Source: Thermoanaerobaculia bacterium (GTDB lineage Bacteria > Acidobacteriota > Thermoanaerobaculia > Multivoradales > JAGPDF01). From it: a stretch of DNA of 64,000 nt. The stretch covers positions 6,313 to 70,312 of the forward strand of contig CAWBFZ010000010.1 in the NCBI GenBank assembly GCA_963788175.1, read 5' to 3'. The notes below the pieces were generated by a model. The model did not search any database. It was given only the letters and a program-made list of their open reading frames with translations, and was not told where the DNA came from. Shown here piece after piece: positions 932 to 32,660 of the stretch (the first letter of the stretch is position 1; each line of letters starts with the position of its first letter). Made by a program: the position numbers and the translations under genes.

Positions 932-3640
932 ATGATCGGCCAACGCCTCGGCCCCTACGAGATCACCGCCAAGCTGGGCGAGGGCGGCATGGGTGAGGTC
1001 TATCGCGCCACCGACTCGCGCCTGAAGCGCGAGGTGGCGATCAAGGTTCTCCCCGCCGCCTTCACCGAGGACAGGGAGCGACTCTCGCGCTTCGAACGCG
1101 AAGCGCAGCTCCTCGCCCAGCTGCATCACCCCAACATTGCCTCGATCTTCGGCCTCGAGGAGAGCGGCGGCGTCAAGGCGCTCATCATGGAGCTCGTCGA
1201 CGGCCCAACCTTGGCCGAACGCCTCGAATCGGGGCCTCTTTCCTTTACTGAGAGCTTTTCCTTCGCGCTGCAGATCGCGCAGGCGCTCGAAGAGGCCCAC
1301 GAAAAGGGCATCGTCCACCGTGACCTCAAGCCCCAGAATGTAAAAGCTTCCAGTGAAGGAAAAGCCAAAGTCCTCGATTTCGGGTTGGCCAAGGCGATGG
1401 ACGCAACGCCTGGAGCCGCATCCGCGGCCGATCTCGCGCGCTCGCCGACGATCATGAACTCCCCCACCCTGACTGCGGCGCACGGGACGCAGTTGGGCGT
1501 GATCCTCGGCACCGCCGCCTACATGGCGCCGGAGCAGGCGCGCGGCGGCACGGTCGACAAGCGCGCCGACATCTGGGCCTTCGGCGTGGTCCTGTACGAA
1601 ATGCTCACCGGCCGCTCGCTGTTCGCCGGCCCGACGGTCTCCGACACCCTCGCCGGCGTCCTCAAGACGGCGATCGACTTCGCGGAGCTGCCCGCCGACA
1701 CGCCGCCGGCGATCCGCCGGCTCTTGCGCCGCTGCCTCGAGCGCAATCCGAAGAACCGCCTGCACGACATCGCTGATGCCCGCATCGTGCTGCAGGAGTC
1801 GATCGCGGGCACGGGCGAGCCGGAGGCAGCGCAAGAACGGACGGTCGGCGTGGGCTGGCGATCTCCGGCGCGTCTGGCGGCAGGAGCGGCGACCTTGCTT
1901 GCGGTGGGTGTCGCCGGCGGCTGGATATTCGGATCGCGCTCCGCCGAGTCGGGTGGCGGGGCGGTCGGTGCCTCCCGGGATCCCGTCCGATTCTCGATCC
2001 GGCCTCCCGCAGGCGTGGTCGAGGTGATGAACCCGCAGGTCTCCTCGGCTGGCGACCTCGTTCTCTATCAGGGCTGGAGGCGGGACGACTCGGGGCGGCT
2101 CTACAGCCATCGTCTCGCCGACGGGGTGTCAAGGGCGGTCGACGGGACAGAAGGGGGAGTCGATCCCTTTCTCTCGCCGGATGGCCGCTGGGTCGGCTAT
2201 CGCAAGGACAACGGACTCTTCAAGAGCCCGCTCGCCGGCGGCGATCGGCTGACGATCTGTCCGGACTGCCGTGTTGCTTCGGGCTCGGCGTGGCTCGACG
2301 ACGGTACCATCCTGTACAACAACGCCTGGCTCGGCGGCCTTTCGATCGTCTCCGCCGACGGCGGATCGCCGCGGGTCGTGACGCAGCCGGATGCAGCCGC
2401 CGGTGAGCGCGGTCATTGGTTCCCCAACCGACTTCCCGGCGGCCGGTTCGCGCTCTTCACCATCTTTCCCTCGCAGAGCGGCATCAACGACGCCTGGATC
2501 GCCGTGCTCGATCTCGGAACCGGCGCCTACAGGCGGCTCGTGCACGGCGCGGATGCGCACTTCCTGGCGCCGCGTCACCTGATCTTCTATCGCGGCGGTG
2601 CCTACCACGCGGTGGAGTTCGATCTCAGCTCGGGGACCGTCGTCGGAGAGCCAGCCAAGGTGGTCGATGACGCCACCGAGCACGACCCCTCTGGAGACAA
2701 CCGGCGGCCGCTCTTCGCCGGCGGAGGACTGCTCGTCTACCGGCCCGGCGCCCTCCACGATCTTTCCGAGCTCGCCTGGCTGAGGCGCGGCCGAGCACCG
2801 GAGCCGCTCCGCATCCCCGCGCGCCCCTGGGTCCAGCTCGCGCTGTCGCCTGACGGCAAAGAGCTTCTCGGCTCGGTTCTCGAAGGGGGAGCGTTCGCAC
2901 TGCGCCGCGTCGCCCTCGACAGCGGCAGCGAGGAGCGGCTGTCGCTTCAGGGCATGAACTGGAAGCCTCGTTGGCGCCCGGACGGCGCCGGCATCGTCTT
3001 CCGCACGATGCGCAAAGGCGACTACGATACCTACTGGCTGGACCTGGTGGCAGGCGGAGCAGCCCAACCAGTCCTCGAGAGCCCGTCCGACGAGACGCCG
3101 ATCGCCTGGACTCCGGACGGCAAGAATCTGCTCGCCGAAATCTCGCAGGCGGATGGTTCGTACCCGCTCTTGCTGCATCCGCTCGACGGCGGGAAAGATC
3201 GGATCGTGGTCGACCAGCCGTTCGATCCGGACGAAGCTGCCGTCTCACCCGACGGCAATTGGCTGGCCTTCGCTTCCAGCCATTCGGGGACGAAGGAGAC
3301 CTATGCGCAACCTCTCGACGGCAAAGGAGCTGCGCAGCGGGTTTCGCGGCGCGGCGGCGCCTCGCCGTCGTGGTCTACCGACGGGCGCTGGATCTACTAC
3401 GTCGCGGGAAAGAAAATTCTACGGGTCGCCGTGCGCGCGACCGGGCCTCGCCTCGACGTCGGTGAAGAGGAGACGATTGCCGAGGGAAACTTCGTCGCGA
3501 TTTCCCCGGCGTTCGCCGGTACGGAACAGGAGCGCTTCCTGGTGGCGCTGGGCCCTCCGGTCGAGCCCCCCGTTGAGTTGCGCGTGATCATGGGCTTTCA
3601 GCGCGAGATCGAAGTCAAGATGGCGCAGGAACACCGGTAG
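932..3640 (+). CDS. Receptor-type Ser/Thr protein kinase: N-terminal Hanks kinase, one TM helix, C-terminal TolB/PD40-like beta-propeller (paralog 1)
   Basis: Starts MIGQRLGPYEITAKLGEGGMGEVYRATD with the Gly-rich loop, VAIK, HRDLKPQN, DFG and APE motifs. The TM segment is LAAGAATLLAVGVAGGWIF. Repeated SPDG(R/K)W(I/L) PD40 motifs follow. The ATG at 932 is in frame inside the longer ORF 803..3640. Confidence 0.9.
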   Translation: MIGQRLGPYEITAKLGEGGMGEVYRATDSRLKREVAIKVLPAAFTEDRERLSRFEREAQLLAQLHHPNIASIFGLEESGGVKALIMELVDGPTLAERLESGPLSFTESFSFALQIAQALEEAHEKGIVHRDLKPQNVKASSEGKAKVLDFGLAKAMDATPGAASAADLARSPTIMNSPTLTAAHGTQLGVILGTAAYMAPEQARGGTVDKRADIWAFGVVLYEMLTGRSLFAGPTVSDTLAGVLKTAIDFAELPADTPPAIRRLLRRCLERNPKNRLHDIADARIVLQESIAGTGEPEAAQERTVGVGWRSPARLAAGAATLLAVGVAGGWIFGSRSAESGGGAVGASRDPVRFSIRPPAGVVEVMNPQVSSAGDLVLYQGWRRDDSGRLYSHRLADGVSRAVDGTEGGVDPFLSPDGRWVGYRKDNGLFKSPLAGGDRLTICPDCRVASGSAWLDDGTILYNNAWLGGLSIVSADGGSPRVVTQPDAAAGERGHWFPNRLPGGRFALFTIFPSQSGINDAWIAVLDLGTGAYRRLVHGADAHFLAPRHLIFYRGGAYHAVEFDLSSGTVVGEPAKVVDDATEHDPSGDNRRPLFAGGGLLVYRPGALHDLSELAWLRRGRAPEPLRIPARPWVQLALSPDGKELLGSVLEGGAFALRRVALDSGSEERLSLQGMNWKPRWRPDGAGIVFRTMRKGDYDTYWLDLVAGGAAQPVLESPSDETPIAWTPDGKNLLAEISQADGSYPLLLHPLDGGKDRIVVDQPFDPDEAAVSPDGNWLAFASSHSGTKETYAQPLDGKGAAQRVSRRGGASPSWSTDGRWIYYVAGKKILRVAVRATGPRLDVGEEETIAEGNFVAISPAFAGTEQERFLVALGPPVEPPVELRVIMGFQREIEVKMAQEHR

Positions 3641-3660: not shown

Positions 3661-6417
3661 TTGATCGGCAGCCGCCTCGGCCCCTACGAGATCACCGCCA
3701 AGCTGGGCGAGGGCGGGATGGGCGAGGTCTACCAGGCGACCGACACCAAGCTCGAGCGCCAGGTAGCGATCAAAGTGCTGCCGGCGGCGTTCACCGAGGA
3801 CAAAGAGCGCCTGGCGAGATTCGAGCGCGAGGCGAAGCTCCTCGCCCAGTTGAATCACCCCAACATCGCGCAGATCTACGGCCTCGAGACCGGCGGCGCT
3901 ACCTACGCCCTCGTCATGGAGCTCGTCCCCGGCCCGACGCTCGCCGAGCGCCTTGAGCTGGGACCTCTTTCCCTTACCGAGAGCTTCTCTCTCGCGCTGC
4001 AGATCGCCCAGGCGCTCGAAGAGGCGCACGAGAAGGGGATCGTCCATCGCGACCTCAAGCCCCAGAATGTAAAGGCCCCCAGGGAAGGAAAGGCCAAGGT
4101 GCTCGACTTCGGCTTGGCGAAGGCGAGGGATTCCGCCGGCGCCGCCGCCGCCGCGGCCGACCTCGCACGCTCGCCGACGCTGATGCACTCGCCGACGCTG
4201 ACCGCGGTCCGCGGCACGGAACTCGGGGTGATCCTCGGCACCGCGGCCTACATGGCGCCAGAGCAGGCGAAGGGCAGGGCGGTCGACAAGCGGGCCGACA
4301 TCTGGGCGTTCGGCGTCGTGCTCTTCGAGATGTTGACCGGGCGCCAGCTCTTCGGCGGCGAGACCGCCTCGGAGACGATCGCCGAAGTTCTCAAGCAGGA
4401 GATCGACTTCACGGCGCTCCCGGCCGCGCTCCCAGCCGGTGTCGAACGGCTGCTGCGGCGCTGCCTCGAGCGCGATCCGCAGCGCCGCCTGCGCGACATC
4501 GGCGAGGCGCGCATCATTCTCGAGCAGGCGCTCTCTCCCGGAGAGAGCGCGGGCGCGACGGCGCCACCGGCTCGACCTGAAGCCGTTGCAGCCGGGCGGC
4601 GCGCGCTGCCGTGGGCCGTGGCCGCTGTGCTCGCCGCCGCGGTCGTCGTTCTGGCGATCGCCGGCAGGTCCCCGAAGAAGGCTCCCCCGCCGGCGACGAC
4701 CGTCCTCGCGATGCGCTTCCCTGCCGGCCTCGCGCTTCCGCTCGACGATCGCGGCCTCTATGGCCAGACCGGCCGGATCGCGATTTCGCGCGACGGCCGG
4801 CGCGTGGCCTTCGTCGCCGGGGCCGGCGGCGAGGCAAAGCTCTACCTGCGAAATCTCGAGAACGCGATGGTCGTACCGATCGCCGGCACCACCGGCGCGA
4901 GCAGCCCGTTTTTCTCGCCGGACGGACGCTGGATCGGCTACTTCGCGCCCGGCAAGCTGCGCAAGGTCGCGGTCGACGGCGGCAAGCCGATCGACCTCGC
5001 CGATGCCAGCCTCGACCGCGGCGGAGTCTGGTGCCCCGACGGCTCGATCGTCTTCCCGCCCAACGTGACCTCCGGTCTCTTCCGGCTCCTGCCCGGCGGC
5101 GGGCCACCGGTGGCGCTGACGACACTCGACGCTGCCCAGGGAGAACGCACGCATCGCTGGCCGGCAGTTCTACCGGGCGGCAGGGAGGTAGCCTTCACCA
5201 TCGGGCGCATCGGCCAGCCCGGAGACTACGAATCGGCGACGATCGACGCCGTCGACCTCGTATCGGGAAAGCGCCGACCGCTCTTCCGCGGCGCCAGCAT
5301 GGTGCGCTTCACCGCCTCCGGCCACGCTCTCCTGGCGCGGGAGGGTCAGGTGCTCGCTCTGCCGCTCGCCGGAGCTTCCGGCGCGAGCACCGAGGACGCC
5401 GTGCAGGTGCTCTCCGGGGTCAGCGGAATCCCGGCGAGCGGCGTGCTCTATTTCGACGTCGCCGAAAACGGCACCCTGGTTTACGCCGAGAGCGATCCGG
5501 GAGCCAGCCAGCTCGAGCTCGCATGGCTCGATCGCTCCGGCACTCTAGAGAGCCTCGGCCTGCCGCCGCGCGAGTACCAGGGACCGAGGATTTCGCCCGA
5601 CGGCAAGCGGATCGCCGTCACCATCGGCCCGAGCGGCGGGCGCTCCGGCGACGTCTGGATTCACGACCTGACGAGCCGCGCGCTCACCAAGCTCTCCTTC
5701 GAAGGCCGCAGCTGGACGCCGGTCTGGGGCCGCGACGGGAGCGACGTCACCTACGCCACGATCACGCCGACCGGAGAGGACCAGTTCCGCTCGCGTCCGG
5801 CCACCGGCGGCGACGAGCCGAAGACGGTCCTCGCCTTCGGGCAGGGCCTGGCGCGCCAGCCGGTCGCGTGGATGCCGGACGGTTCGCTCCTCGCCTGGGA
5901 AGACGCCGGTACCCCCACTGTCGGCAACGTCGTCTACTTCCCGCCCGGGGCACGCGAGCCGCTGTCGATCGCCAGAACGCCGGCGATCGAGACCCAGGCT
6001 TCCGCCTCCCCCGACGGCCGCTTCGTCGCCTACGCTCTCGACGCCAGCGGCGCCTCGGAAATCTACGTCCAACCGTTCCCGCCCACCGGCGCCAAGTGGC
6101 AGGTGGCGACCGGCGCTGCCATGCCGCTCTGGTCCCGCGACGGCAGGCAGCTCTATTTTCTCGCGGGCAGGAGCCTCATGGCGGCGCCGGTCACGACGAT
6201 CGGCGGCTTCAGCATCGGCGCGCCGCGCAAGCTCCTCGACATGCCGCCCGCGCTCGTTCTGCTGACCGACACGACGACCAACTTCGACGTCGCCGGCGAC
6301 GGCCGCTTCCTGGTGGTGCGCCAGACCTCGCAGGAGAACATGACCGGCCACCTCGTCGTCGCCCTCGACTGGTTCACGGCGCTGCGCAAGCTCGCACCGC
6401 TTCCGGAGGCGCGATGA
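3661..6417 (+). CDS. Ser/Thr kinase-TM-beta-propeller paralog 2 (TTG start)
   Basis: Starts (TTG)IGSRLGPYEITAKLGEGGMGEVYQATD and carries the full set of kinase motifs. The TM segment is LPWAVAAVLAAAVVVLAIAG, followed by PD40 repeats. The start lies 20 nt after paralog 1, preceded by AGGGGAA. Confidence 0.85.
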   Translation: MIGSRLGPYEITAKLGEGGMGEVYQATDTKLERQVAIKVLPAAFTEDKERLARFEREAKLLAQLNHPNIAQIYGLETGGATYALVMELVPGPTLAERLELGPLSLTESFSLALQIAQALEEAHEKGIVHRDLKPQNVKAPREGKAKVLDFGLAKARDSAGAAAAAADLARSPTLMHSPTLTAVRGTELGVILGTAAYMAPEQAKGRAVDKRADIWAFGVVLFEMLTGRQLFGGETASETIAEVLKQEIDFTALPAALPAGVERLLRRCLERDPQRRLRDIGEARIILEQALSPGESAGATAPPARPEAVAAGRRALPWAVAAVLAAAVVVLAIAGRSPKKAPPPATTVLAMRFPAGLALPLDDRGLYGQTGRIAISRDGRRVAFVAGAGGEAKLYLRNLENAMVVPIAGTTGASSPFFSPDGRWIGYFAPGKLRKVAVDGGKPIDLADASLDRGGVWCPDGSIVFPPNVTSGLFRLLPGGGPPVALTTLDAAQGERTHRWPAVLPGGREVAFTIGRIGQPGDYESATIDAVDLVSGKRRPLFRGASMVRFTASGHALLAREGQVLALPLAGASGASTEDAVQVLSGVSGIPASGVLYFDVAENGTLVYAESDPGASQLELAWLDRSGTLESLGLPPREYQGPRISPDGKRIAVTIGPSGGRSGDVWIHDLTSRALTKLSFEGRSWTPVWGRDGSDVTYATITPTGEDQFRSRPATGGDEPKTVLAFGQGLARQPVAWMPDGSLLAWEDAGTPTVGNVVYFPPGAREPLSIARTPAIETQASASPDGRFVAYALDASGASEIYVQPFPPTGAKWQVATGAAMPLWSRDGRQLYFLAGRSLMAAPVTTIGGFSIGAPRKLLDMPPALVLLTDTTTNFDVAGDGRFLVVRQTSQENMTGHLVVALDWFTALRKLAPLPEAR

Positions 6418-6504
6418 GACCGTCCCCTGCGCTCCCCGGATTCCCAGGACCTTCCTCGTTTCCCGCCACGAAGCGCACACCATGAGTCTCGAGCCCGGCA
6501 CCCG

Positions 6505-9264
6505 ATGATCGGCCAACGCCTCGGCCCCTACGAGGTCACCGCCAAGCTCGGCGAGGGCGGCATGGGAGAGGTGTATCGGGCTACCGACACCAAGCTCGAG
6601 CGCCAGGTTGCAATCAAGGTGCTGCCGGCGGCGTTCACCGAAGACAAGGAGCGCCTCGCGAGATTCGAGCGCGAAGCCAGACTCCTCGCCCAGCTCCACC
6701 ATCCCAACATCGCCTCGATCTTCGGCCTCGAGGAGAGCGGCGGAGTCAAGGCGCTCGTCATGGAGCTCGTCGACGGCCCAACCTTGGCCGAACGCCTCGA
6801 ATCGGGGCCTCTTTCCCTTACTGAAAGCCTCTCTTTCGCGCTGCAGATCGCGCAGGCGCTCGAAGAGGCCCACGAAAAGGGCATCGTCCACCGCGACCTC
6901 AAGCCCCAGAATGTAAAAGCTTCCAGTGAAGGAAAAGCCACGGTCCTCGATTTCGGGCTGGCCAAGGCGATGGATGCGACCCCCGGTTCCGCTTCCGCGG
7001 CGGATCTCGCGCGCTCGCCGACGTTGATGAACTCGCCCACCCTGACGGCGGTCCACGGAACCCAGCTCGGCATGATCCTCGGGACTGCGGCCTACATGGC
7101 GCCCGAGCAGGCGCGCGGCGCCGCGGTCGACAAGCGCGCCGACATCTGGGCCTTCGGCGTCATGCTCTACGAGATGCTCACCCGCGAGCGGCTCTTCGAG
7201 GGCGACAGCGTCGTCGACACGATTTCGGCGGTGATGCGCAAGCAGATCGATCTCACGGGTCTGCCGGCTGCGGCGTCGCCGCGCGTGCGCGAGTTGGTGC
7301 GGCGCTGTCTCGAGCGCGATCCGAAGCGACGCCTGCGCGATATCGGGGAAGCGCGGCTGCTGATCGAGCGCGAGCTCGCGGGCGAGCCAGGAGTCGGAGA
7401 GGGAGGAAGCGGAAGTAACGCCGACAGCGGCACGGGTGCGGCTCCTTCAGCTGCGAACACCACCCGTCAGCTTGCCCTCGCTGGCGTCATCGTCGGAGCC
7501 GTCTCGATCGGGCTCGTGGTCGGAAAATTCATCCTGTCGCCTCCGCCGGCCGCCCAGAACGCGCGATCGATCCGCGCCACGATTGCTCTCCCGGCCGGGC
7601 TCGAGCTCGACGGTGTCGGAGCACCGGAGATCGCCCTCTCACCGGACGGCTCGACGCTCGCCTTTCTGGCCCGGGGTGAAAGTGGGCCTCAGCATCTGTA
7701 TCTACGGCGGCTCGACGGCGACGAGGTGAAGCGGGTGCCGGGCAGCGAGACCGCCGAGGGCCCGTTCTTTTCCCCCGACGGCAAGTGGGTCGCCTTCGCC
7801 GTCGGCGTCTCGGGCCTGGGTGGAGGCATTCCGCGTGAGCTGCGCAAGCAGTCGCTCGAAACCGGGCTGACGCAGACGATCGCCACGATCGAGGACTACT
7901 TCGGCGGCGTCTGGCGGAACGATGGGACGATTCTCCTCGTCGAGGCTACCGACGGAACCCTCTCGTCCGTGCCGGCGAGCGGCGGCAAGCCTTCTCCTGC
8001 GGTCGAGAGCGTCCTCGACCGCGGCGAGCGGCGCGCGGTGGCGATCTTCTGGCCCGAGCTGTTGCCGGGTGGCCGGGCCATCGCCTTCGCCACGGACGAA
8101 AGGCCGGCCGGCGAACTGGCCGTACTCGATCTCGAGTCGAACGTCCTCAGCCGGCTCGGCGTGCATGGGATGTCGCCGCGCTACCTGCCGACCGGCCATC
8201 TCGCCTTTGGCGGTGAAAGCGGAACTCTCGAGGTCGTGCCGTTCGACGCCGCAGGGAGGCGGGTCCTCGGCGCGCCGGTGGCGATGCTCGGCGACGTCGC
8301 CCGGGCGCGCAATCGCTCGGCGACCTACGCCGTCTCCGCCAACGGCACGCTCGTCTACGCGACCGGCTATCTGCGCAACAGTCGCAGCGAACCGATGCGC
8401 GTGGTGCGAGCTTCGCGCGGCGGCGCCTTCGAGACGCTGGCGATCGAGCCCGATCTCTACGGCCGCGCTCTCGCAGTCGCGCCGGACGGCGGGCGAGTGG
8501 CCCTGGCGCGCGAAGATCGCGGCAGCTGGGTGGTCGACCTCGAGCGCGGGACGCGGACCAAAGTCGCCGGCGTGGAGTTGAGCGGCGCGATGAATGTCGC
8601 GTGGTCTCCCACCGGCGACCGGTTGGCCTGGGTTGCTGCGGCTCCCGAGGGGAACGCGGTCGCCCTCTTCGTTCAGCCGAGCGACGGGCGAGGGACGCCG
8701 CAGGTACTTGCGGTGCGCGACGACGACCTCACCGTCGCCGGCTGGATGCCGGACGGCCGCGAGCTGGTCTTCACGCGCTGGGGATCCTCCGCGACGATCG
8801 AGCGCATCGCTCTCGACGGCGAGAGCACCGTCGCCTGGAAGGACCCCGGCGCGCTCAGCGCCAGCGCCCTCTCGCCCGACGGACGATTCGTCGCACTCGA
8901 GTCGGACGCGGGCGAAGGCTACGAGCTCTACCTCTTTACCTTCGCCACAGGAGAGCGGACCCAGGTCACCGGCGCTGGCGGACGCGATCCGTTCTGGGCG
9001 AAAGATGGGCGGGAGCTCTTCTTTCGCCGGGGCGCCGGGATCTATTCCGTCGCGGTCTCGTCCGCCGCGGACGGTTCGCCCCGGATTGGCCGGGAGACGC
9101 GGCTGTTCGAATGGCCCGCCGCCTACCGGGTCGTCGCTGGTCGCGACGGCGTCTTCTTCGGGATCGAACCGGTCCCCGGCGCCGCGACGCAGCGCAGCCT
9201 CGAGCTGCGCACGGAGTGGTTCGCCGATGTGAAGCGGCTCGCCGGAGCGGGAAACAAGAATTGA
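6505..9264 (+). CDS. Ser/Thr kinase-TM-beta-propeller paralog 3
   Basis: Starts MIGQRLGPYEVTAKLGEGGMGEVYRATD. Kinase motifs are intact, the TM segment is LALAGVIVGAVSIGLVVG, and PD40 repeats follow. Confidence 0.9.
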   Translation: MIGQRLGPYEVTAKLGEGGMGEVYRATDTKLERQVAIKVLPAAFTEDKERLARFEREARLLAQLHHPNIASIFGLEESGGVKALVMELVDGPTLAERLESGPLSLTESLSFALQIAQALEEAHEKGIVHRDLKPQNVKASSEGKATVLDFGLAKAMDATPGSASAADLARSPTLMNSPTLTAVHGTQLGMILGTAAYMAPEQARGAAVDKRADIWAFGVMLYEMLTRERLFEGDSVVDTISAVMRKQIDLTGLPAAASPRVRELVRRCLERDPKRRLRDIGEARLLIERELAGEPGVGEGGSGSNADSGTGAAPSAANTTRQLALAGVIVGAVSIGLVVGKFILSPPPAAQNARSIRATIALPAGLELDGVGAPEIALSPDGSTLAFLARGESGPQHLYLRRLDGDEVKRVPGSETAEGPFFSPDGKWVAFAVGVSGLGGGIPRELRKQSLETGLTQTIATIEDYFGGVWRNDGTILLVEATDGTLSSVPASGGKPSPAVESVLDRGERRAVAIFWPELLPGGRAIAFATDERPAGELAVLDLESNVLSRLGVHGMSPRYLPTGHLAFGGESGTLEVVPFDAAGRRVLGAPVAMLGDVARARNRSATYAVSANGTLVYATGYLRNSRSEPMRVVRASRGGAFETLAIEPDLYGRALAVAPDGGRVALAREDRGSWVVDLERGTRTKVAGVELSGAMNVAWSPTGDRLAWVAAAPEGNAVALFVQPSDGRGTPQVLAVRDDDLTVAGWMPDGRELVFTRWGSSATIERIALDGESTVAWKDPGALSASALSPDGRFVALESDAGEGYELYLFTFATGERTQVTGAGGRDPFWAKDGRELFFRRGAGIYSVAVSSAADGSPRIGRETRLFEWPAAYRVVAGRDGVFFGIEPVPGAATQRSLELRTEWFADVKRLAGAGNKN

Positions 9265-9265: not shown

Positions 9266-11975
9266 TTGGCCATGTCCTTAGGCGCGGGAAGTCGCCTCGG
9301 CCCCTACGAAATTACCGCCAAGCTGGGCGAGGGCGGCATGGGCGAGGTCTACCGCGCGACCGACTCGCGTCTCAAGCGCGAGGTGGCGATCAAGGTTCTG
9401 CCCGCAGCCTTCACTGCGGACAAGGAGCGTCTCGCCCGATTCGAGCGCGAAGCGCAACTGCTCGCGCAGCTGAACCACCCGAACATCGCTCAGATCTACG
9501 GCCTCGAGACCAGCGGCGCCACGCACGCCCTGGTCATGGAGCTCGTCCCCGGTCCGACGCTCGCCGAGCGCTTCGAATCCGGAGCTTTTTCCATTACCGA
9601 AAGCCTTTCTTTCGCCTTGCAGATCGCCCAGGCGCTCGAAGAGGCCCACGACAAGGGCATCGTCCACCGCGACCTCAAGCCCCAGAACATCAAGGCTTCC
9701 AGTGAAGGAAAAGCCAAGGTCCTCGATTTCGGGTTGGCCAAGGCGATGGACGCGACCGTCGGCGCCGCCTCGGCGGCCGATCTCGCGCGCTCGCCGACGC
9801 TGATGCATTCGCCGACTCTGACCGCCGTGCATGGGACGCAGCTGGGCATGATCCTGGGCACCGCGGCCTATATGGCGCCCGAACAGGCGCGGGGCGCTGC
9901 GGTCGACAAGCGGGCCGACATCTGGGCGTTCGGCGTGCTGCTCTACGAGATGCTCACCGGCGAGCGCGCTGTTCGAGGGCGACAGCGTCGTCGACACGCT
10001 GTCCGCCGTGATGCGCCAGGAGATCGATCTCGGACGCCTGCCCGCCGGCACGCCGGGCGCGATCCGGCTGCTGCTGCGCCGCTGCCTCGAGCGCAGCCCG
10101 AAGAACCGCCTGCACGACATCGCCGACGCCCGCATCGTCCTCGAGGAGCAGATCGCGGGCAAGGGCGACGAGGCGATCCCGGGCGTCGGCGTTCCCGCGG
10201 TAGACAAGGCCGGCCGGTCGCGCCTCGTCGAGCGGCTCGCCTTCGGCATCGGAGCGCTGGCGCTCGCCGGTCTCGCCTGGACTCTCGCTGCCCGCGGCGG
10301 GAGCAACGAGCCGCCGCGGCGCGCGGCGCGCTTCCACATCCTGCCGCCCGAGGAGGCCGAGTTCAACTCCACCGACGGACCGCTCGAGCTCTCGCCGGAC
10401 GGACAATCGCTGCTCTTCCGGCTCGAGAAGCCGGACGGCGAGCACGGCCTCGCCATCCGCCGCCTCGACTCGTTCGACATCCGCGAGCTGCCCGGAACGA
10501 CTCGCGCCTACGACGCCTTCTGGTCGGCCGACGGCCGCTCGATCGGTTTCTTCCGCGCCCAACTGGAGACCATTGACGCCGCCGGCCTGCAGGCGCCGCA
10601 GCAGCTCGCCGTCGTGCGCGACGGCCGGGGAGGAAGCTGGAACCGGAACGGCATCCTCCTCTTCGCTCCGGATCCGGCCGGTGCGATCTATCAGATCCCG
10701 GCGACCGGCGGCGCGCCGGTCGCAGTGACGGCAATCGACGCCGCGCTCGGCGAGACCGCCCACATGCGGCCGAGTTTCCTGCCCGACGGCAAGCACTTCA
10801 TCTACCTGATCAAGTCAGAGCGCGCCGAGAGCTCCGGCATCTTCGTCGGCGCGCTCGACGGCAAGCTCAAGAAACGTTTGCTGCCCAGCGAGACCGCTCC
10901 GCGCTTCGCTCCGCCCTCGTTCCTCCTGCTCTTCCAGAACGACCGCCTGGTCGCACGCCAGCTCGATCTCGAGCGGCTCGAAGTCACCGGCGAAGCGACC
11001 GCGCTGGCTGGCGGCGTCGAGTACACCTCGCGATTCGAGAGCCTGCCGGCCTCGGCGTCGCTCGACGGCAGGCTCGTCTACCACCAGCCCTCGACTGGTC
11101 AACTGCGTCAGACCGTGCACGCCGACCGCCTCGGCAAGCGACTCGCAACGCTCGGCGAACCGGGAGATTCGAACCTGGATCTCTCGCCTGACGGACGCCG
11201 ACTCGCGGTCGTCCGCTTCGATGTCGAACGCCGGCGGCAGTTCGTCTGGATTCACGATCTCGAACGCGACGTCCGCTTTCCGTTGAGCCCGGACAGTCCC
11301 GCCGGCGGACCGGTCTGGTCACCTGACAACCGGACGGTAGCCTACGCCGCCGAAACATCGACCGAGCCGCGCATCGCGACGCGTCCGGCGGACGGCGGCC
11401 CCGAACGCGTCGTCTGGCGTGACCCGTTCATCATGGAGCCGGTCGACTGGTCGCCCGACGGTCGTTGGATCCTCACCGAAGTTGGCTCGGCGGCCGGCAG
11501 GACCGATCTGACGCTGGTCCCGGCCGACGGCTCGGGCAGCGTGGTGCCGTTCGCCAACCAGCGCTTCACCGAGGACAGCGGCCGATTCTCGCCCGACGGC
11601 AGATTCATCGCCTACGTCTCGGACGAGGCGGGCCGCCCGGAGATCTACGTCGAGCCGGTGCCGCGCACCGGTGCCAAGTGGCTGGTCTCGGGCCGTGGCG
11701 GCAACGCCCCGCGCTGGAGCGCCGGCGGCAGGGAACTGCTCTACGTCGAGCCCGGCGCACGCGAGACCGACTCGACTCTGACCTCGGTCCGCGTTGAGCC
11801 GCAGGGCGACGGGCTCGCCTTCAGCCAGGCCACGGCGGTCGCACCGATCCCGTCGCTCGATATCGAGCTTGCCGCCGGCGGCCGCGAGCTTCTGCTGACC
11901 GTTCCGGTCGTCCAGGGCGTCACGCGCCCGCCGATCCTGATCGAGAACTGGACGGCGCTCCTGCCGGCGAAGTGA
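9266..11975 (+). pseudogene. Ser/Thr kinase-TM-beta-propeller paralog 4, frame broken by a +1 indel near 9963-9970
   Basis: The kinase frame 9266.. reads ...EMLTGERAVRGRQRRR (nonsense). The correct continuation ERLFEGDSVVDTLSAVMRQEIDL is in the frame of ORF 10008..11975. Nucleotide alignment to paralog 3 (gagcggctcttcgag versus gagcgcgctgttcgag here) shows one extra base. Confidence 0.75.
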
Positions 11976-12039: not shown

Positions 12040-12082
12040 ATGGTAGACTTTCTGCCATGAATGGTGCCATTGAAACTACCAT
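12040..12082 (+). promoter_or_regulatory. inverted repeat ATGGTAG-N29-CTACCAT with multiple CCAT/ATGG motifs overlapping the antitoxin start; candidate autoregulatory operator
   Basis: Sequence gATGGTAGactttctgCCATgaATGGtgCCATtgaaaCTACCATgg. The arms are at 12040-12046 and 12076-12082. Confidence 0.3.
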
Positions 12083-12320: not shown

Positions 12321-12324
12321 CCGC

Positions 12325-18288: not shown

Positions 18289-18294
18289 GGCGCC

Positions 18295-22023: not shown

Positions 22024-22054
22024 CTCACCCACATACTGCGATATTGTCAGCAAC

Positions 22055-22318
22055 ATGAAGACGACCATCGACCTTCCCGACACCCTGCTGGAAGAGGCGC
22101 GGCGCGTCGCTGCGGCGCGCGCGACGACGGTCAAAGCGCTGGTCGAGGCCGGCCTGCGTCGCGAATTGCGCGAACGGTCCCACGCCGCTCCTTTCGAGCT
22201 CCGCGACGAGAGCTTCGCGGGGCGCGGCTTGCGGCCGGAAATCGAGAGCGCCTCCTGGGACCGTTTGCGCGAGCTGGCGTACGGCGGGCGCGGCGCCGCC
22301 GCCAGCACCGAAGAGTGA
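22055..22318 (+). CDS. vapB: VapB-family antitoxin (Rv0623-like)
   Basis: MKTTIDLPDTLLEEARRVAAARATTVKALVEAGLRREL is the canonical N-terminus of this antitoxin family. Its stop overlaps the downstream PIN gene (GTGA). Confidence 0.8.
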   Translation: MKTTIDLPDTLLEEARRVAAARATTVKALVEAGLRRELRERSHAAPFELRDESFAGRGLRPEIESASWDRLRELAYGGRGAAASTEE

Positions 22319-22761
22319 TTGCGCTCGACACCAATCTGCTGGTCTACGCCCACCGCGCCGACTCGACCTGGCACCGGGCGGCGGCGGAGCGCGTCCGCGG
22401 GCTGGCCACGGGGCGCGGCGCCTGGGCGATTCCCTGGCCCTGCGTGCACGAGTTTCTCGCCATCGTGACGCACCCGCGCATCTACGATCCGCCCACTCCG
22501 CTCGCCAAGGCGATCGACCAGGTGAGCGCCTGGCTGGAATCACCGACCCTCGTGCTTCTCCATGAGGGGCACGATCACTGGCCGGTTCTGGGCACGCTCC
22601 TCACCCGGGGCAAGATCGCCGGCCCACAGGTGCACGACGCCCGCGTCGCCGCTCTCTGCCTCTCCCACGGCGTCAGCGAGCTGTGGAGCGCCGACCGCGA
22701 CTTCAATCGCTTCCGCGATCTGATGGTCCGCAACCCGCTGATCGATAGCGAGAGCGCCTGA
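22315..22761 (+). CDS. vapC: VapC PIN-domain toxin
   Basis: MIALDTNLLVYAHRADS... (IALDTNLL PIN N-terminus). The protein is 148 aa and carries the conserved acidic residues. It overlaps vapB by 4 nt. Confidence 0.8.
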   Translation: MIALDTNLLVYAHRADSTWHRAAAERVRGLATGRGAWAIPWPCVHEFLAIVTHPRIYDPPTPLAKAIDQVSAWLESPTLVLLHEGHDHWPVLGTLLTRGKIAGPQVHDARVAALCLSHGVSELWSADRDFNRFRDLMVRNPLIDSESA

Positions 22762-22848: not shown

Positions 22849-25572
<2,724 letters not shown>

Positions 25573-25576
<4 letters not shown>

Positions 25577-29305: not shown

Positions 29306-29308
29306 GAG

Positions 29309-29542
29309 ATGAAGAGGACGACGATCTACTTCGATCCCGAGCTCGAGGCGCTGCTCAAGGCCGAGACGCTGCGCCGGAATCAGCCGATGGCGGAGCTCGT
29401 CCGCGAAGCCGTTCGTGAGTACATCATCCGCCACCGGCCTGACTCGCCGCCGGGTGCGGGCGAGTTCGCCAGCGGGCGCTCCGACACGGCCGATCGATGC
29501 GAGGAGGTTCTCACCGCAACCGGCTTCGGAACGAGTCGCTGA
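29309..29542 (+). CDS. Ribbon-helix-helix (CopG-like) antitoxin
   Basis: MKRTTIYFDPELEALLKAETLRRNQPMAELVREAVREYI has the RHH-antitoxin pattern. The protein is 77 aa and sits immediately upstream of a PIN gene. Confidence 0.75.
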   Translation: MKRTTIYFDPELEALLKAETLRRNQPMAELVREAVREYIIRHRPDSPPGAGEFASGRSDTADRCEEVLTATGFGTSR

Positions 29543-29977
29543 GTGGCAGTTCTCCTCGACAGCGGGATTCTCTATGCCTACTATGACCGCAGCGACCGCT
29601 GGCACCGGGCGGCGGTCGAGCTGATCACCGCCGAGGCGGGTCGTCTCCTCCTGCCCTCACCGGTCGTGCCCGAGGTCGATCACCTGCTCGGAACCCGGCT
29701 GGGGAGAGCGGCAAGGCTGCAGTTCTACCGCGGACTCGTCGAAGCGAGCTTCCTGCTCGTCGACCTTCCGCAGGAACGCGTGGCCCGCCTTCGCGAAATC
29801 GACGAGCAGTTCTCCGCGCTCGATCTCGGCTTCGTCGACAGCGCACTGGTGGCCCTGACCGAGACTACAGGCGTGAAACGCATCGCCACCGCCGATCGCC
29901 GACACTTCGAGCCGCTCGCCCGCGCGTTCGACCTGACCCTCGTGCCCACTCCGCCCGAGGCGGAGGCGCGCCAGTGA
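29543..29977 (+). CDS. PIN-domain toxin (VapC-like), GTG start adjacent to the antitoxin stop
   Basis: (V)AVLLDSGILYAYYDRSDRWH... with later acidic residues (LGFVDSALVAL, ATADRRHF). The protein is 144 aa. Confidence 0.75.
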   Translation: MAVLLDSGILYAYYDRSDRWHRAAVELITAEAGRLLLPSPVVPEVDHLLGTRLGRAARLQFYRGLVEASFLLVDLPQERVARLREIDEQFSALDLGFVDSALVALTETTGVKRIATADRRHFEPLARAFDLTLVPTPPEAEARQ

Positions 29978-29990: not shown

Positions 29991-32660
29991 ATGATTGGCA
30001 CCCGCCTCGGTCCCTACGAGATCACCGCCAAGCTCGGCGAAGGCGGCATGGGCGAGGTCTTCCGCGCCCGCGACAGCAAGCTCGACCGCGAGGTGGCGAT
30101 CAAGGTGCTGCCCCAGCATCTCGCCGCCGACGCCGAGGCTCTGGCGCGCTTCGAACGCGAAGCCAAGGCGGTCGCGGCGCTTTCGCATCCGAACATCCTG
30201 GCCATCTTCGACTTCGGCAGGGACGGCGAGACCGCCTACGCGGCGATGGAGCTGCTCGACGGCGAGACGCTGCGCGAGCGGCTCACTTCGGGGCCGCTGC
30301 CGGTGCGCAAGGCGCTCGAGGTCGCTGCGCAGATCGCCGCCGGGCTCGCCGCCGCGCACGCCCGCGGCATCGTCCACCGCGACCTCAAACCCGACAATCT
30401 CTTCCTCACCCGCGACGGCCAGCTGAAAATCCTCGACTTCGGCCTGGCGCGCCAGAGCGAACTGCACGGATCGAAGAGCCAGCTTCTCGCTGCGCCGACG
30501 CAGGGACCCGGCACCGAGCCCGGCGCGGTGCTCGGGACGGTCGGCTATATGTCCCCGGAGCAGGTGCGCGGCGAACCGGCGGACAACCGCTCGGACCTCT
30601 TCGCGCTCGGCGTCGTGCTCTACGAAATGCTCACCGGCCGGCGTGCCTTCGCTCACGGCTCGGCGGTCGAGACGATGTCGGCGATCCTGCGCGAAGAGCC
30701 GCCGGAGATCGAAAGCCTCGGCGAGAAGTTCTCGCCGGCGCTCGCCCGCCTCCTCCAGCACTGCCTCGAGAAGCGCCCCGACGAGCGCTTCCAGTCGGCG
30801 CGCGATCTCGCTTTCGATCTCAGGTCGCTGGCGACCGGCGGCTCTTCCTCCGGACGCTCCGGCCGCGCAGCGGTCGTCGCGGAGAGTCCGGCGCGCCGGC
30901 GCGCGCTCGCGGCCGCGCTCCTCGTCGCCGTCGGAGCTCTCGCGGGCGGAGTGGCCGCGACTCTCCTGCGCCGCCCCGCGGCCCCCGCGGCGGCAGTCCT
31001 CCGGCCGACGTTCCGGCAGCTGACCAAGCTGCCCGGCGGCGAAGGGAATCCGACCATCGCCCCCGACGGCGAGAGCTTCGTCTTCGTCAAGCGTGACGGC
31101 GGCGACGCCGATCTCTTCCTGCAGCGGATCGACGGCGCGAAGCCGATCCCGCTCACCGCCGACTGCGCGCAGGACGACACCGATCCGGAGTTTTCGCCCG
31201 ACGGACGGACGATCGCCTACCGCTCGGAATGCGGCGGCGGCGGCATCTTCGTCATGGGGGCGACCGGCGAGGCGAGCCGGCGCGTCACCGATTTCGGCTA
31301 CGCGCCGGCCTGGTCGCCGGACGCGAGCGAGCTTGCCGTCGTCACCGAAGACAGTGGGCCGCCGACCTCACGCAATTCGCTCAGCGAGCTCTGGGCGGTG
31401 AAGCTCGACTCCGGCGTACGCCGGCGGGTGAGCCTCTACGACGCGATGGCACCGACCTGGTCGCCCGACGGGCGCCGCATCGCCTTCTGGGGCCTGCGCA
31501 GGGAGACCTTCCAACGCGATCTCTGGAGCGTGTCCGCCGACGGTTCCGAGAGCGCGGTAGAGGCTGCAGTCTCGATCGTCGACGATCCGGCGATCGACTG
31601 GGCGCCGGTCTACTCGCACGACGGCCACTGGCTCTATTTCGCCTCGACGCGGGGCGGGACCTTCAACATCTGGCGCCTGGCACTCGACCCGGCCACCGGC
31701 GCCGCGCAGGGTGAGCCCGAGCCGCTGACCGCGCCGTCGAGCTGGGCCGGCCCCTTCGATCTCTCTGCCGACGGTCGCCGCATCGTCTTCGTCGACCGCA
31801 ACGCGCAGACCGGGATCGTGCGCGCCGCGTTCGACCCCTCGCGCCAGGAGCTCGCCGCCGCGCCGGCGCCGGTCTTCAGCGGTTCCTTCGAGCTCCGCGA
31901 GCAACAACTGTCCTTCGATGGCCAACGGATCGTCTTCACCAACGAGGACATGCCGCAGCACCTCCACTTGGTGCAGATCGACGGCACCGGCTACCGCCAG
32001 CTCACCACCGGAGACGAAAGGAATCGACAGGGTTCATGGTCGCCGCAAGGAGACTGGATCGCCTTCCAGACCAACCAGGGGGAATCCAGCCTGGCCGCGA
32101 TCCATCCCGACGGCGGTGCGCGGCAACCGATCGCGGTCGGACGCGGCTTCACCAATCCGCGCTGGTCGCCCGACGGCAAGGCGCTGGTCACCTTCAATAC
32201 CGGAATCGGCGGCATGGTGCTCGACCTCGCTGCCGGTCTTGGCTCGCCAGTCAAGCAGGACCTGCCGCCGGTCGCACCCGGAGTGCTCTTCTGGCCGATC
32301 GCCTGGTCCCCGGACGGCTCGCAGATCGCCGGCACCGCGGTCACCGCCGGGCAGGTCGGCGACATCCATCTCTGGTCGATCGCCGAGCGCACCTATCGCA
32401 GGTTGCGCTGGGCTCGCGAAGGGCTGGTCGACTACAGCCTCGCCTTCGTCGACCGCGACCATCTCGTCTACGGTTCCGGCGGCGAGGTCTGGCTCGGCGA
32501 CCTCCGCGGTGGCGCGCCCAGGCGACTCTACGCCCCGGCGCCCGGCCACATCATCAACAACCTCTCCGCCTCGCGCGACGGCCTCGCCCTCACCTGGATC
32601 GACAACGCCGACGAGTCGGACATCTGGCTGATGACACTCGAAGAGCAGACAACCCCCTAG
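29991..32660 (+). CDS. Divergent Ser/Thr kinase-TM-TolB/PD40 beta-propeller protein (paralog 9)
   Basis: MIGTRLGPYEITAKLGEGGMGEVFRARDSKLDREVAIKVLP with HRDLKPDNLFL and DFGLARQ motifs. The TM segment is LAAALLVAVGALAGGVAATLL. PD40-like motifs EFSPDGRTIAY, WSPDGRRIAFW and WSPDGSQIAG follow. Confidence 0.9.
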   Translation: MIGTRLGPYEITAKLGEGGMGEVFRARDSKLDREVAIKVLPQHLAADAEALARFEREAKAVAALSHPNILAIFDFGRDGETAYAAMELLDGETLRERLTSGPLPVRKALEVAAQIAAGLAAAHARGIVHRDLKPDNLFLTRDGQLKILDFGLARQSELHGSKSQLLAAPTQGPGTEPGAVLGTVGYMSPEQVRGEPADNRSDLFALGVVLYEMLTGRRAFAHGSAVETMSAILREEPPEIESLGEKFSPALARLLQHCLEKRPDERFQSARDLAFDLRSLATGGSSSGRSGRAAVVAESPARRRALAAALLVAVGALAGGVAATLLRRPAAPAAAVLRPTFRQLTKLPGGEGNPTIAPDGESFVFVKRDGGDADLFLQRIDGAKPIPLTADCAQDDTDPEFSPDGRTIAYRSECGGGGIFVMGATGEASRRVTDFGYAPAWSPDASELAVVTEDSGPPTSRNSLSELWAVKLDSGVRRRVSLYDAMAPTWSPDGRRIAFWGLRRETFQRDLWSVSADGSESAVEAAVSIVDDPAIDWAPVYSHDGHWLYFASTRGGTFNIWRLALDPATGAAQGEPEPLTAPSSWAGPFDLSADGRRIVFVDRNAQTGIVRAAFDPSRQELAAAPAPVFSGSFELREQQLSFDGQRIVFTNEDMPQHLHLVQIDGTGYRQLTTGDERNRQGSWSPQGDWIAFQTNQGESSLAAIHPDGGARQPIAVGRGFTNPRWSPDGKALVTFNTGIGGMVLDLAAGLGSPVKQDLPPVAPGVLFWPIAWSPDGSQIAGTAVTAGQVGDIHLWSIAERTYRRLRWAREGLVDYSLAFVDRDHLVYGSGGEVWLGDLRGGAPRRLYAPAPGHIINNLSASRDGLALTWIDNADESDIWLMTLEEQTTP

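Follow-up and report, generated by a model that had tools for sequence, protein, structure and literature searches.

Decoupled histories of kinase heads and propeller tails in an array of ten receptor-type serine/threonine kinase genes of a Thermoanaerobaculia bacterium

The window, that is, the whole stretch of 64,000 nucleotides that was analysed, comes from a soil-type member of the Thermoanaerobaculia (Acidobacteriota). At positions 932-32660 it contains an array of ten neighbouring genes for receptor Ser/Thr kinases, here called G1 to G10, and the genes flanking the array are ordinary chromosomal ones (isocitrate lyase, malate synthase and Crp). The 5' part of each gene, which encodes the kinase, is referred to as the head and the remainder as the tail, and the eight genes with closely similar heads are referred to as family-type. 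The kinase genes, the small genes in the gaps between them and a kinase-head relic are listed below.

932..3640, plus strand: G1, 902 aa, family-type head, transmembrane segment at residues 315-333, Pkinase E 3e-48, PD40 E 2e-13 in the ectodomain
3661..6417, plus strand: G2, 918 aa, TTG start, family-type head; tail orthologue of 59% identity in JBDTNL (locus L016)
6505..9264, plus strand: G3, 919 aa, family-type head; tail 91% identical to that in CAZQTL (locus L009)
9266..11975, plus strand: G4, family-type head, 1-nt insertion at about 9968; 902 aa when repaired, with motifs intact after repair; PD40 E 2e-21
12057..12320 and 12244..12771 (longest ORF), plus strand: AbrB/MazE-type antitoxin (TIGR01439 AbrB, 4e-9) and PIN-domain protein (PF01850, 6e-7)
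12848..15487, minus strand: G5, 879 aa, divergent head class, 41-44% identical to the family
15559..18288, plus strand: G6, TTG start (909 aa) or, as annotated in public protein P0001, ATG start (906 aa); ectodomain modelled
18289..18639 and 18636..19274, plus strand: two overlapping small genes, family unassigned; same position kept in loci L040/L003 and L033
19303..22023, plus strand: G7, 906 aa, family-type head
22055..22318 and 22315..22761, plus strand: VapBC pair, VapB (PF09957, 3e-6) and VapC/PIN (TIGR00028, 6e-29)
22849..25576, plus strand: G8, family-type head, 1-nt insertion at 22945; 908 aa when repaired; tail orthologues of 73-74% identity
25573..28311, plus strand: G9, 912 aa, start overlapping the G8 stop by 4 nt; tail orthologues of 64-79% identity
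28338..28439, plus strand: G10-type kinase-head relic of 34 residues, corresponding to G10 residues 78-111 (76% identity) and also recognisable among the translated ORFs
29309..29542 and 29543..29977, plus strand: toxin-antitoxin-like pair, small upstream protein and PIN protein (2.5e-10)
29991..32660, plus strand: G10, 889 aa, chimeric head, strongest PD40 signal among the ten

The eight gene starts given by an earlier sequence-only reading of this DNA (932, 3661, 6505, 9266, 15559, 19303, 22849 and 25573) proved correct. Its description of the genes as head-to-tail, with gaps of 1-87 nt or ATGA overlaps, needs correction: G5 sits on the minus strand, and of the nine junctions only four are close, three with gaps of 20, 87 and 1 nt and one with a 4-nt overlap. 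The remaining five junctions measure 71-1679 nt, and four of these house pairs of small genes, for the most part VapBC-like. Transcription as one unit is plausible within G1-G4 and within G8-G9 only. When the heads were searched against the window by tblastn, the relic at 28338-28439 was the sole match outside the ten genes.

Both the kinase and the propeller profiles matched all ten genes, as did a single hydrophobic segment, which bears out the previously proposed common architecture. Pkinase (PF00069) scored 146-179 bits (cut-off 31.7; E 1e-42 to 1e-52) and PD40 (PF07676) scored 32-115 bits (cut-off 20.9; E 1e-7 to 1e-33); the head of G4, which lies in the other reading frame, was scored with a custom head profile. 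None of the ten proteins lacks any of the five catalytic motifs (G-loop, VAIK, HRDLKPxN, DFG and APE) once the frameshifts of G4 and G8 are repaired. All ten are Hanks-type kinases, catalytically intact as judged by these motifs and predicted to be capable of phosphotransfer. Each protein has one 19-residue segment with a Kyte-Doolittle value of 1.7-2.6, located within residues 305-344 right behind the kinase, and the next-best hydrophobic segment in any of the ten does not exceed 1.55, in agreement with the single transmembrane helix claimed earlier. The predicted topology is that of single-pass receptor kinases with the helix between kinase and sensor, and the kinase is assigned to the cytoplasmic side because it needs ATP.

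The structure of the sensor was predicted for G6. Its ectodomain gave an all-beta AlphaFold2 model (pLDDT 92.2, pTM 0.90) with the PD40/TolB-type beta-propeller fold, like that of the C-terminal domain of TolB. Foldseek ranked proteins with two propellers highest, LRP6 and tricorn among them (TM about 0.3), and single propellers matched the 550-residue ectodomain across only about half its length. The ectodomain, about 550 residues long, is therefore modelled most likely as two TolB/PD40-type six-bladed propellers rather than as another all-beta arrangement.

TolB, the periplasmic component of the Tol-Pal system, carries an N-terminal domain ahead of its propeller. It matches one propeller only, and in the array proteins a kinase and a membrane anchor take the place of its N-terminal domain. 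At 73 bits the TolB model itself (TIGR02800) stayed below its cut-off of 343, and it covered only part of the propeller; the array proteins are not TolB orthologues, and nothing points to Pal-binding. PknD of Mycobacterium tuberculosis is encoded by a single gene that is not known to belong to a tandem array. It is likewise a receptor Ser/Thr kinase with an extracellular beta-propeller (PDB 1rwi), but that propeller is a single one of NHL repeats instead of PD40/TolB repeats, and sequence identity is 10%.

Among the gap genes, the pair at 22055-22761 has the VapBC arrangement, a PIN toxin gene right after a small antitoxin gene, with VapC above the TIGR00028 cut-off; the VapB score was taken on a longer ORF, 21980-22318. 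The PIN proteins of the pairs at 12057-12771 and 29309-29977 are above the Pfam cut-off but below or outside the NCBIfam VapC model. Pairs homologous to the former adjoin kinases in two other loci (L002 and L035), and pairs homologous to the latter lie upstream of kinases in L040/L003, L028 and L036. The protein of 29309-29542, which occupies the antitoxin position, had no family match and resembles the RHH type by eye only. The two genes at 18289-19274 had no Pfam, NCBIfam or PADLOC match; the second, 18636-19274, showed a faint likeness to a nucleotidyltransferase toxin (phmmer E 0.48 to the AbiEii/AbiGii toxin 8an4).

The insertions in G4 and G8, one nucleotide each, both fall in the head and produce a visible switch of frame, possibly as the result of assembly error. 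Two frameshifts were also found in an OPT transporter gene of the window, which indicates assembly indel problems.

Among the eight family-type genes, the heads are 72-86% identical in protein and the tails only 26-37%, so that the propellers are indeed distantly related, as had been stated before. Identity drops steeply between codons of about 225 and 295. Nucleotide identity of the heads had been put at 85-90%; the measured values were lower: codons 1-225 gave 79-89%, with a mean of 84%, and codons 1-294 gave 76-84%. Despite its divergent head, G5 has a tail as near to the family tails as these are to one another. The G10 head is family-like in its first 95 nt or so, and its remainder belongs to another head class, 48-50% identical to the family.

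At four-fold degenerate sites, identity among the window paralogues was 0.66 in heads and 0.47 in tails, where codon usage alone predicts about 0.43-0.46; heads of distant orthologues gave about 0.56. Head dS among the window paralogues was about 0.57 and head dN/dS was low, about 0.15. Homogenisation of the heads among the copies in the window is thus only moderate to weak, and exchange appears to be infrequent, because these heads differ by 11-24% in nucleotides at this dS.

Related genomes, all of them metagenome-assembled and sampled as fragments, were used to follow heads and tails separately. Seven of the ten tails had a best match of 59-94% protein identity in other Thermoanaerobaculia genomes. 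Of 68 genes, 64 had their nearest tail in a different genome, whereas 39 had their nearest head in their own genome, with a chance expectation of 5.1. A paralogue head closer than that of the orthologue was present in 57 of 62 reciprocal-best tail orthologue pairs. Head identity between genomes was independent of tail orthology (Spearman -0.01), being 72% for heads with unrelated tails and 74-76% for heads whose tails were 50-80% identical, and paralogue heads of the same genome were 78-81% identical. Counting against exchange, head identity between the four closest genomes was 80-82%, equal to that within genomes.

In the two closest orthologue pairs, head dS was 3-4 times tail dS: 0.76 against 0.185, a fourfold difference, for G6 and its CAWDWZ orthologue, and 0.50 against 0.146 for G3 and its counterpart in CAZQTL. 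In the latter pair the first 280 nt or so of the head were just 75-82% identical, despite the 91% identity of the tail. The histories of heads and tails are decoupled. Paralogues were closer than orthologues in the heads and not in the tails, the pattern of concerted evolution confined to a converted segment, and the signal was present at synonymous sites, which points to exchange of DNA beyond constraint at the protein level.

The dN/dS values of orthologous tails (0.15-0.31) indicate purifying selection, and these values and the orthologue-level matches of seven tails do not agree with diversifying selection on the propellers, for which a check had been proposed. The propellers are an ancient repertoire of many types and are not diversifying fast. 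The earlier picture of diversified sensors joined to a homogenised head therefore holds in one part, that the shared head is kept alike by exchange, as the comparison across genomes, the synonymous sites and the mosaic structure suggest, and fails in the other, that the sensors diversify rapidly.

Recombination breakpoints were sought among the heads. By max-chi-square, two of 168 triplets had values that none of 10,000 permutations reached; in one result of this kind, codons 71-165 of G1 resembled G3 at 40 of 43 sites, compared with 34 of 115 outside this tract (0 of 10,000 permutations). The neighbour similarity score was 0.557 versus 0.361 (p < 2e-4) when all sites were used. With third codon positions alone, neighbour similarity was not significant (p = 0.18) and the two best triplets reached only p of about 0.004-0.006. 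Head identity within arrays did not fall with distance, as simple neighbour-biased conversion predicts it would.

Breaks in homology were also found at head boundaries in comparisons between loci. Positions 16485-19900 of the window are 90-98% identical to L040; the G6 head is just 58-86% identical, and the region upstream of it has no homology there. Homology to CAWDWZ stops inside the G7 head, at about 19935-20185, and CAWDWZ has a different tail beyond. The upstream region and first 95 nt or so of G10 match the upstream region of another gene and then break off, and elsewhere G10-type tails are paired with either head class, depending on the genome.

Arrays of this kind, on one strand, occur clade-wide. 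At least 567 related heads were found in species-representative genomes, nearly all in Thermoanaerobaculia or other Acidobacteriota. In the related arrays, successive kinase genes share a strand in 105 of 111 pairs, and 58 of these 105 are separated by at most 100 nt. The order of tail types is partly kept with differences of single cassettes, for example '2 5' in the window, '2 5 17' in CAVOXC and '2 17' in CAVQJN.

The reading that we prefer, with a probability of roughly 0.7, is that of a paralogous receptor-kinase array in which old, orthologous sensors are joined to heads exchanged by recombination, so that many inputs would be connected to one output. The contrast between heads and tails would then arise because old and stable sensors are joined to recombining heads, and not because conserved heads are joined to fast sensors. 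Each ectodomain type would be a separate lineage under purifying selection with orthologues in other species, and, since the types are conserved across species, each presumably binds its own stable ligand. The head module, approximately codons 1-295, would be swapped among paralogues by homologous recombination, probably through gene conversion and unequal crossovers. Recombination among paralogues would produce mosaic heads that are nearer to heads of the same genome or clade than to those of their true orthologues, and a head of a different class would occasionally be fitted to a tail. The same process may add, delete and re-pair whole sensor cassettes, leaving relics and synteny broken at head boundaries. 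With regard to function, many periplasmic inputs may converge on one shared phosphorylation output: a ligand bound to the propellers would affect dimerisation or activation of the kinase and autophosphorylation of its long, Ser/Thr-rich activation loop, and the activated kinases would phosphorylate shared substrates.

Two explanations that dispense with exchange of heads were weighed against this reading. One, quite improbable, is that the genes are old whole-gene duplicates with a constrained, slowly evolving kinase and a fast ectodomain. Kinase domains are well conserved in general, the low head dN/dS fits, and a head dS of about 0.57 means that protein identity alone needs no recent homogenisation; protein constraint cannot explain, however, why four-fold sites are unsaturated in heads and saturated in tails, and the heads of G6 and G3 with 3-4 times the dS of their own tails, the closer paralogue heads in nearly all orthologue pairs, the mosaic blocks and the two head classes on one tail lineage are likewise unaccounted for. 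The other, for which the chances are slimmer still, is recent lineage-specific tandem duplication followed by rapid diversification or hypermutation of the propeller, as in an arms race of plant receptors. The tandem same-strand layout and heads far closer than tails would be expected from it, and kinase clades restricted to single species, known from other phyla, have been attributed to lineage-specific duplication and/or recombination (PMC11032199). It is contradicted by tails that mostly have orthologues elsewhere and lie nearest to tails of other genomes, by their low dN/dS and by the G5 tail, which is family-like in distance although its head class differs; in addition, no reverse transcriptase, diversity-generating element or recombinase was found among the subset of window ORFs scanned.

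An artefact, in which the array or the head swaps result from collapsed or chimeric assembly of repeated kinases in metagenome-assembled genomes, has a similarly small likelihood. The indel errors in G4, G8 and the transporter gene, the metagenomic origin of all comparison genomes and the exact coincidence of synteny breaks with repeated heads could be taken as signs of it. A check for collapsed repeats nevertheless indicated a genuine array: collapse or mis-joining is unlikely with heads differing by 11-24% and a longest exact run between any two of 59 nt, comparable arrays occur in many independent assemblies, among them contigs of 0.4-2.2 Mb, and mis-joins cannot create clustering of heads by genome that is independent of the joined tail. 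Somewhat less remote, and still improbable, is a defence or non-self-recognition island whose kinases sense invaders or competitors and whose toxin-antitoxin modules serve as effectors or parts of the system. Between the kinases there are indeed three pairs of PIN/VapC type and a fourth two-gene pair of unassigned family, homologous pairs lie between kinases in six other loci, PIN, HEPN and AbiEii genes occur in gaps of related arrays, and PADLOC defence kinase models match the heads. Those matches, however, are limited to the generic kinase domain, the gap genes of related arrays are mostly unrelated (only 4 of 35 toxin-antitoxin-like), the flanks are ordinary chromosomal genes, and sensors with a predicted periplasmic location, conserved between species by purifying selection, are unlike typical fast-turnover defence genes.

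Literature searches gave only general accounts of kinase expansion, in keeping with the previous statement that such dense arrays have not been functionally characterised in bacteria, and the array adds to the known expansions of bacterial receptor kinases. Large families of membrane-bound Ser/Thr kinases have been described from Planctomycetota ('Ca. Uabimicrobium amorphum') and Myxobacteria (PMC11032199, citing Perez et al. 2008); these are likewise single-pass proteins with a cytoplasmic Pkinase domain, but their periplasmic repeats are of the WD40 or TPR type and not PD40. Their kinase-domain trees show species-specific clades, ascribed to duplication and/or recombination, and some duplicates are adjacent; orthologous sensors with exchanged heads and dense same-strand arrays of at least ten genes do not appear in the available part of that article. 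In 'Candidatus Solibacter usitatus' Ellin6076, of the same phylum, Ser/Thr kinases rank with the most strongly expanded groups of paralogues; positive selection was not detected in them, and substitutions were little saturated (PMC3174227). Those paralogues share under 50% full-length identity and were treated as whole genes, and in the part of that article available TolB and WD40 are unmentioned and heads and tails are not analysed apart.

Expansions of bacterial Ser/Thr kinases are usually read as lineage-specific duplication because kinase trees show species-specific clades. The sensors of this array show that such a reading can be wrong, since the genes are old and orthologous and, on the preferred reading, only the kinase module has been exchanged; trees of kinase domains would be unsafe for dating or counting duplications in such families. 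The family may also be regarded as a natural experiment with many inputs onto one output, which predicts interchangeable heads and common substrates.

Toxin-antitoxin cassettes have been proposed to guard large integron arrays against deletion. It is possible, although we consider it doubtful, that the heads of about 900 nt are both signalling modules and recombination handles of a slowly shuffling cassette array, in which sensors may be gained, lost and re-paired while one output is kept; the toxin-antitoxin pairs in the gaps would then, by analogy with the integron cassettes, protect the array from deletions favoured by its repeats. If so, the array would be a bacterial counterpart of the receptor-kinase and NLR clusters of plants and fungi, with the difference that in the bacterial array it is the constant module, not the recognition module, that is homogenised. 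In polymorphic toxins with C-terminal cassettes, the conserved N-terminal part provides recombination homology for re-pairing with C-terminal modules (PMC3482391). The likeness is one of mechanism only, as the array consists of complete, apparently functional genes that encode sensors, not toxins, and exchange is slow in evolutionary terms.

The sensors appear to represent a large, uncharacterised class of periplasmic tandem-propeller proteins that is abundant in soil Acidobacteriota and a target for ligand discovery. At least 90 tail types were present among 136 sampled genes, and ectodomain matches at E <= 1e-30 comprised 17,082 representatives at 50% identity.

Ten large open reading frames (G1–G10) were found between 932 and 32660 of the window, which has a G+C content of ~70%. 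Each encodes a Hanks-type Ser/Thr kinase half (head, ~codons 1–295), one transmembrane helix and a C-terminal PD40/TolB ectodomain (tail), putatively a periplasmic sensor.

932–3640, G1
3661–6417, G2
6505–9264, G3
9266–11975, G4, with a 1-nt insertion at 9968
12848–15487, minus strand, G5
15559–18288, G6
19303–22023, G7
22849–25576, G8, with a 1-nt insertion at 22945
25573–28311, G9
29991–32660, G10

A Pfam scan, a check that the sequence-only reading had asked for, gave matches in all ten genes, with E-values of 1e-42 to 1e-52 for Pkinase and of 1e-7 to 1e-33 for PD40. Each protein has one strongly hydrophobic 19-residue segment within residues 305–344, right behind the kinase, and the glycine loop, the VAIK lysine, HRDLKPxN, DFG and APE are all retained in 10/10 proteins. 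The core observation of that reading, a ten-gene array, was thereby upheld, whereas its identity range for the heads, its uniform head-to-tail order with tight gaps and the intactness that it implied were overstated. G5 is on the minus strand, and although the G1–G4 junctions have gaps of 20, 87 and 1 nt and G8 and G9 overlap by 4 nt, all other junctions measure 71–1679 nt. G4 and G8 are each frame-broken by one extra base in the head, the remaining ~2.6 kb being intact. Since the gene for an OPT oligopeptide transporter at the far window end (62555–64000, minus strand) is likewise frame-broken, needing two frame changes at ~63100–63300, an indel error of the assembly is no less likely than a genuine inactivation of G4 and G8, which suggests that these are perhaps not true pseudogenes and that the window assembly contains indel errors. 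Promoter and terminator scans gave counts at chance level, with none in the intergenic gaps, and an Rfam scan of the entire window found no RNA family.

Eight genes, all but G5 and G10, have heads of one family, which are 72–86% identical in protein and, in nucleotides, 79–89% (mean 84%) over codons 1–225 and 76–84% over codons 1–294. The 85–90% nucleotide identity initially read from the sequence was therefore too high, but the tails are indeed distantly related (26–37% protein identity), and a step-like drop in identity lies at codons ~225 to ~295. The tail of G5 is 27–36% identical to the family tails, as close as these are to one another, and its head only 41–44% identical to the family. 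Identity at four-fold synonymous sites is 66% in the family heads, where codon usage alone would give 46%, and is at the saturated level in the tails (46–47% versus 43% expected).

Comparison with related genomes indicated that heads and tails have had different histories. For seven of the tails, clear counterparts exist in other genomes (G6, 94%; G3, 91%; G9, up to 79%; G8, 73–74%; G10, 66%; G7, 65%; G2, 59%). Between genomes, head identity showed a Spearman correlation of -0.01 with tail orthology: mean head identity was 72% with unrelated tails and 74–76% with tails 50–80% identical, compared with 78–81% among same-genome paralogues. For 39 of the 68 genes, against 5.1 expected, the closest head belonged to a gene of the same genome, and for 64 of the 68 the closest tail came from a different genome. 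Of 62 reciprocal-best pairs of tail orthologues, 57 had a same-genome paralogue whose head was closer than that of the orthologue. Synonymous divergence was accordingly uneven within genes, with dS of 0.76 in the head and 0.185 in the tail for G6 and its orthologue on the CAWDWZ contig of a related assembly, and 0.50 and 0.146, respectively, for G3 and its CAZQTL counterpart. The proposal that the propellers had diversified under diversifying selection was not borne out, as orthologous tails are conserved and their dN/dS of 0.15–0.31 indicates purifying selection.

These results fit old, conserved sensors combined with a recombining kinase module. The sensors, tandem propellers of many distinct kinds, would form a large and ancient repertoire kept across species, attached to a kinase module that recombines among paralogues. 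Exchange is slow, given a dS of ~0.57 among paralogue heads within the window and the one head pool common to the four closest genomes, and still ongoing, given that heads have been replaced since the split from the closest relatives.

Breakpoints were located at several places in the heads. Window positions 16485–19900, which take in the G6 tail, the two small genes behind it and the larger part of the G7 head, are 90–98% identical to the CAWDWZ contig; the G6 head is only 58–86% identical to it, and no homology was found upstream of that head. The homology stops within the G7 head (~19935–20185), after which CAWDWZ carries a different tail. In the comparison of G3 with CAZQTL, the initial ~280 nt of the head are 75–82% and the remainder 88–97% identical. 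A family-type gene of CAWDWZ is preceded by sequence that matches the G10 upstream region, PIN pair included, and the first ~95 nt of G10, with divergence beyond; a 49-nt exact run in this first part of G10 is common to G9, and G10-type tails in other genomes carry a G10-type head in some and a family-type head in others. Mosaicism and exchange were assessed by triplet max-chi-square, four-fold site identity and dS, and not by neighbour similarity at third codon positions, which alone was not significant (p = 0.18). Max-chi-square, run on 168 triplets, showed the window heads to be mosaics: in codons 71–165, 40 of 43 informative sites of G1 were G3-like, compared with 34 of 115 elsewhere, and G3 switched from G1-like to G4-like at codons 220–250, statistics that were each matched by 0 of 10,000 permutations. 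Head identity was unrelated to distance within arrays (Spearman 0.005), and neighbour-biased conversion is thus unsupported.

The gaps of the array contain the following features.

12057–12771, AbrB-type antitoxin and PIN protein
18289–19274, pair of small overlapping genes, neither matching a known family
22055–22761, clear VapBC pair (VapC model 6e-29)
28338–28439, plus strand, kinase-head relic of G10 type, 34 residues long (76% to G10 residues 78–111), 27 nt past the G9 stop
28555–29241, plus strand, IPTL-CTERM small secreted protein between G9 and G10 (PF18203 1e-4, TIGR04174)
29309–29977, PIN protein with a small gene upstream

All array gaps of more than 800 nt contain a small two-gene module, three being PIN/VapC-type with an upstream gene in the antitoxin position and one the unmatched pair, whose second gene has a faint likeness to an AbiEii-type nucleotidyltransferase toxin (E 0.48). 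The gene in the antitoxin position at 29309–29542 has no family match. Homologues of the small gap pairs were found between kinases at six loci of other genomes; gap contents of related arrays are heterogeneous, 4 of 35 gap ORFs being toxin-antitoxin-like. A stabilising effect of the toxin-antitoxin pairs on the array is speculative. The head relic looks like the leftover of a past deletion or rearrangement. Six of the 35 gap ORFs in related arrays are PD40 propeller ORFs without a kinase head (loci L001, L015, L027, L037, L059 and others), and CAWDWZ has a 674-codon ORF (4688–6709 in its locus L040) with a G7-like head and a short, different tail; these may be truncated or decaying cassettes. 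Tail order is partly kept among arrays, with single-cassette differences ('2 5' in the window, '2 5 17' in CAVOXC and '2 17' in CAVQJN). Single unequal crossovers in the heads would account for the synteny broken at head boundaries, the chimeric head of G10 and the head relic, and for cassettes being added or lost one at a time.

Protein constraint alone, under which the heads would be alike because the kinase domain evolves slowly, leaves the findings at synonymous sites and across genomes unexplained. A recent duplication followed by fast propeller divergence would likewise yield similar heads on dissimilar tails, but the conservation of tail orthologues and their low dN/dS contradict it. 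An assembly artefact, either of the array or of the head swaps, is unlikely, since the longest exact run between heads is 59 nt and the by-genome clustering of heads does not depend on head-tail joins. A defence island has circumstantial support only, from the toxin-antitoxin pairs lying within the array and from PADLOC matches to the kinases; those matches (PD-T4-6, mad6, PglW) covered only the generic kinase domain and were rejected as defence evidence, and PADLOC found no match among the small gap genes.

The fold of the ectodomain was modeled with AlphaFold2 from G6 residues 346–909 and 69 homologues. The model (pLDDT 92.2, pTM 0.90) is all-beta with ~44 strands, and its best Foldseek matches were the two-propeller proteins LRP6 and tricorn, with a low overall TM because of a different inter-domain angle. 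TolB was also the top sequence match among solved structures (E 3e-12). The predicted ectodomain was read as a probable tandem pair of TolB-like propellers. From this architecture and from what is known of PknD, PknB and other receptor Ser/Thr kinases, we infer that many periplasmic inputs might be converted into one common phosphorylation output, with activation via the long Ser/Thr-rich activation loop.

A head-profile search covering one genome per species yielded at least 567 related stretches (best 91% identical), nearly all in metagenome-assembled genomes of Thermoanaerobaculia or other Acidobacteriota, including many 13–20 kb loci with four to six consecutive kinases of this type and a 2.2-Mb contig with matches scattered across ~94 kb. 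At related loci, 105 of 111 consecutive kinase pairs were on the same strand, and 58 of these 105 had gaps of ≤ 100 nt. Clustering of the tails of 136 genes at 50% identity gave 18 clusters and 72 singletons. The G6 ectodomain matched 17,082 cluster representatives (50% identity level, E ≤ 1e-30), the best 150 of which were mostly ~900-residue proteins matched from ~residue 350, that is, of the same architecture. Homologues are publicly named only 'serine/threonine-protein kinase' or 'Tol biopolymer transport system component', and in one of them, P0001, the tail region is 100% identical to that of G6. PF26549 and PF26550 are in the precomputed annotation of nearly all 120 homologues (P0001–P0120) and absent from the Pfam scan of the window proteins.

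Literature searches found only general accounts, none of them describing arrays of kinases with PD40 tandem propellers in Thermoanaerobaculia or an exchange of kinase heads among genes whose sensors are orthologous. For Planctomycetota and Myxobacteria, membrane-bound Ser/Thr kinases have been described whose periplasmic repeats are of the WD40 or TPR kind, with species-specific kinase-domain clades ascribed to duplication and/or recombination (PMC11032199), and kinase paralogues are reported to be expanded in Acidobacteria (PMC3174227).

Elsewhere in the window, 49901–55873 carries the two genes of the glyoxylate shunt, for isocitrate lyase and malate synthase, together with genes for a ScdA/hemerythrin protein and a regulator of the Crp family, ordinary genes which indicate that the array is chromosomal and on no obvious mobile element. 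Two large FG-GAP/ASPIC (UnbV) repeat proteins are encoded at 37748–39616 (minus strand) and 43301–48295 (plus strand; 1664 aa, with TPR repeats at the C-terminus), where local G+C is unusually high (74–76%), followed by a sortase gene (48536–49225). FHA domains are phospho-threonine readers, and a VWA-domain protein with a C-terminal FHA domain (2e-13), encoded ~28 kb from the array at 60893–62299 on the plus strand, is possibly such a reader and a conceivable partner of the kinases.
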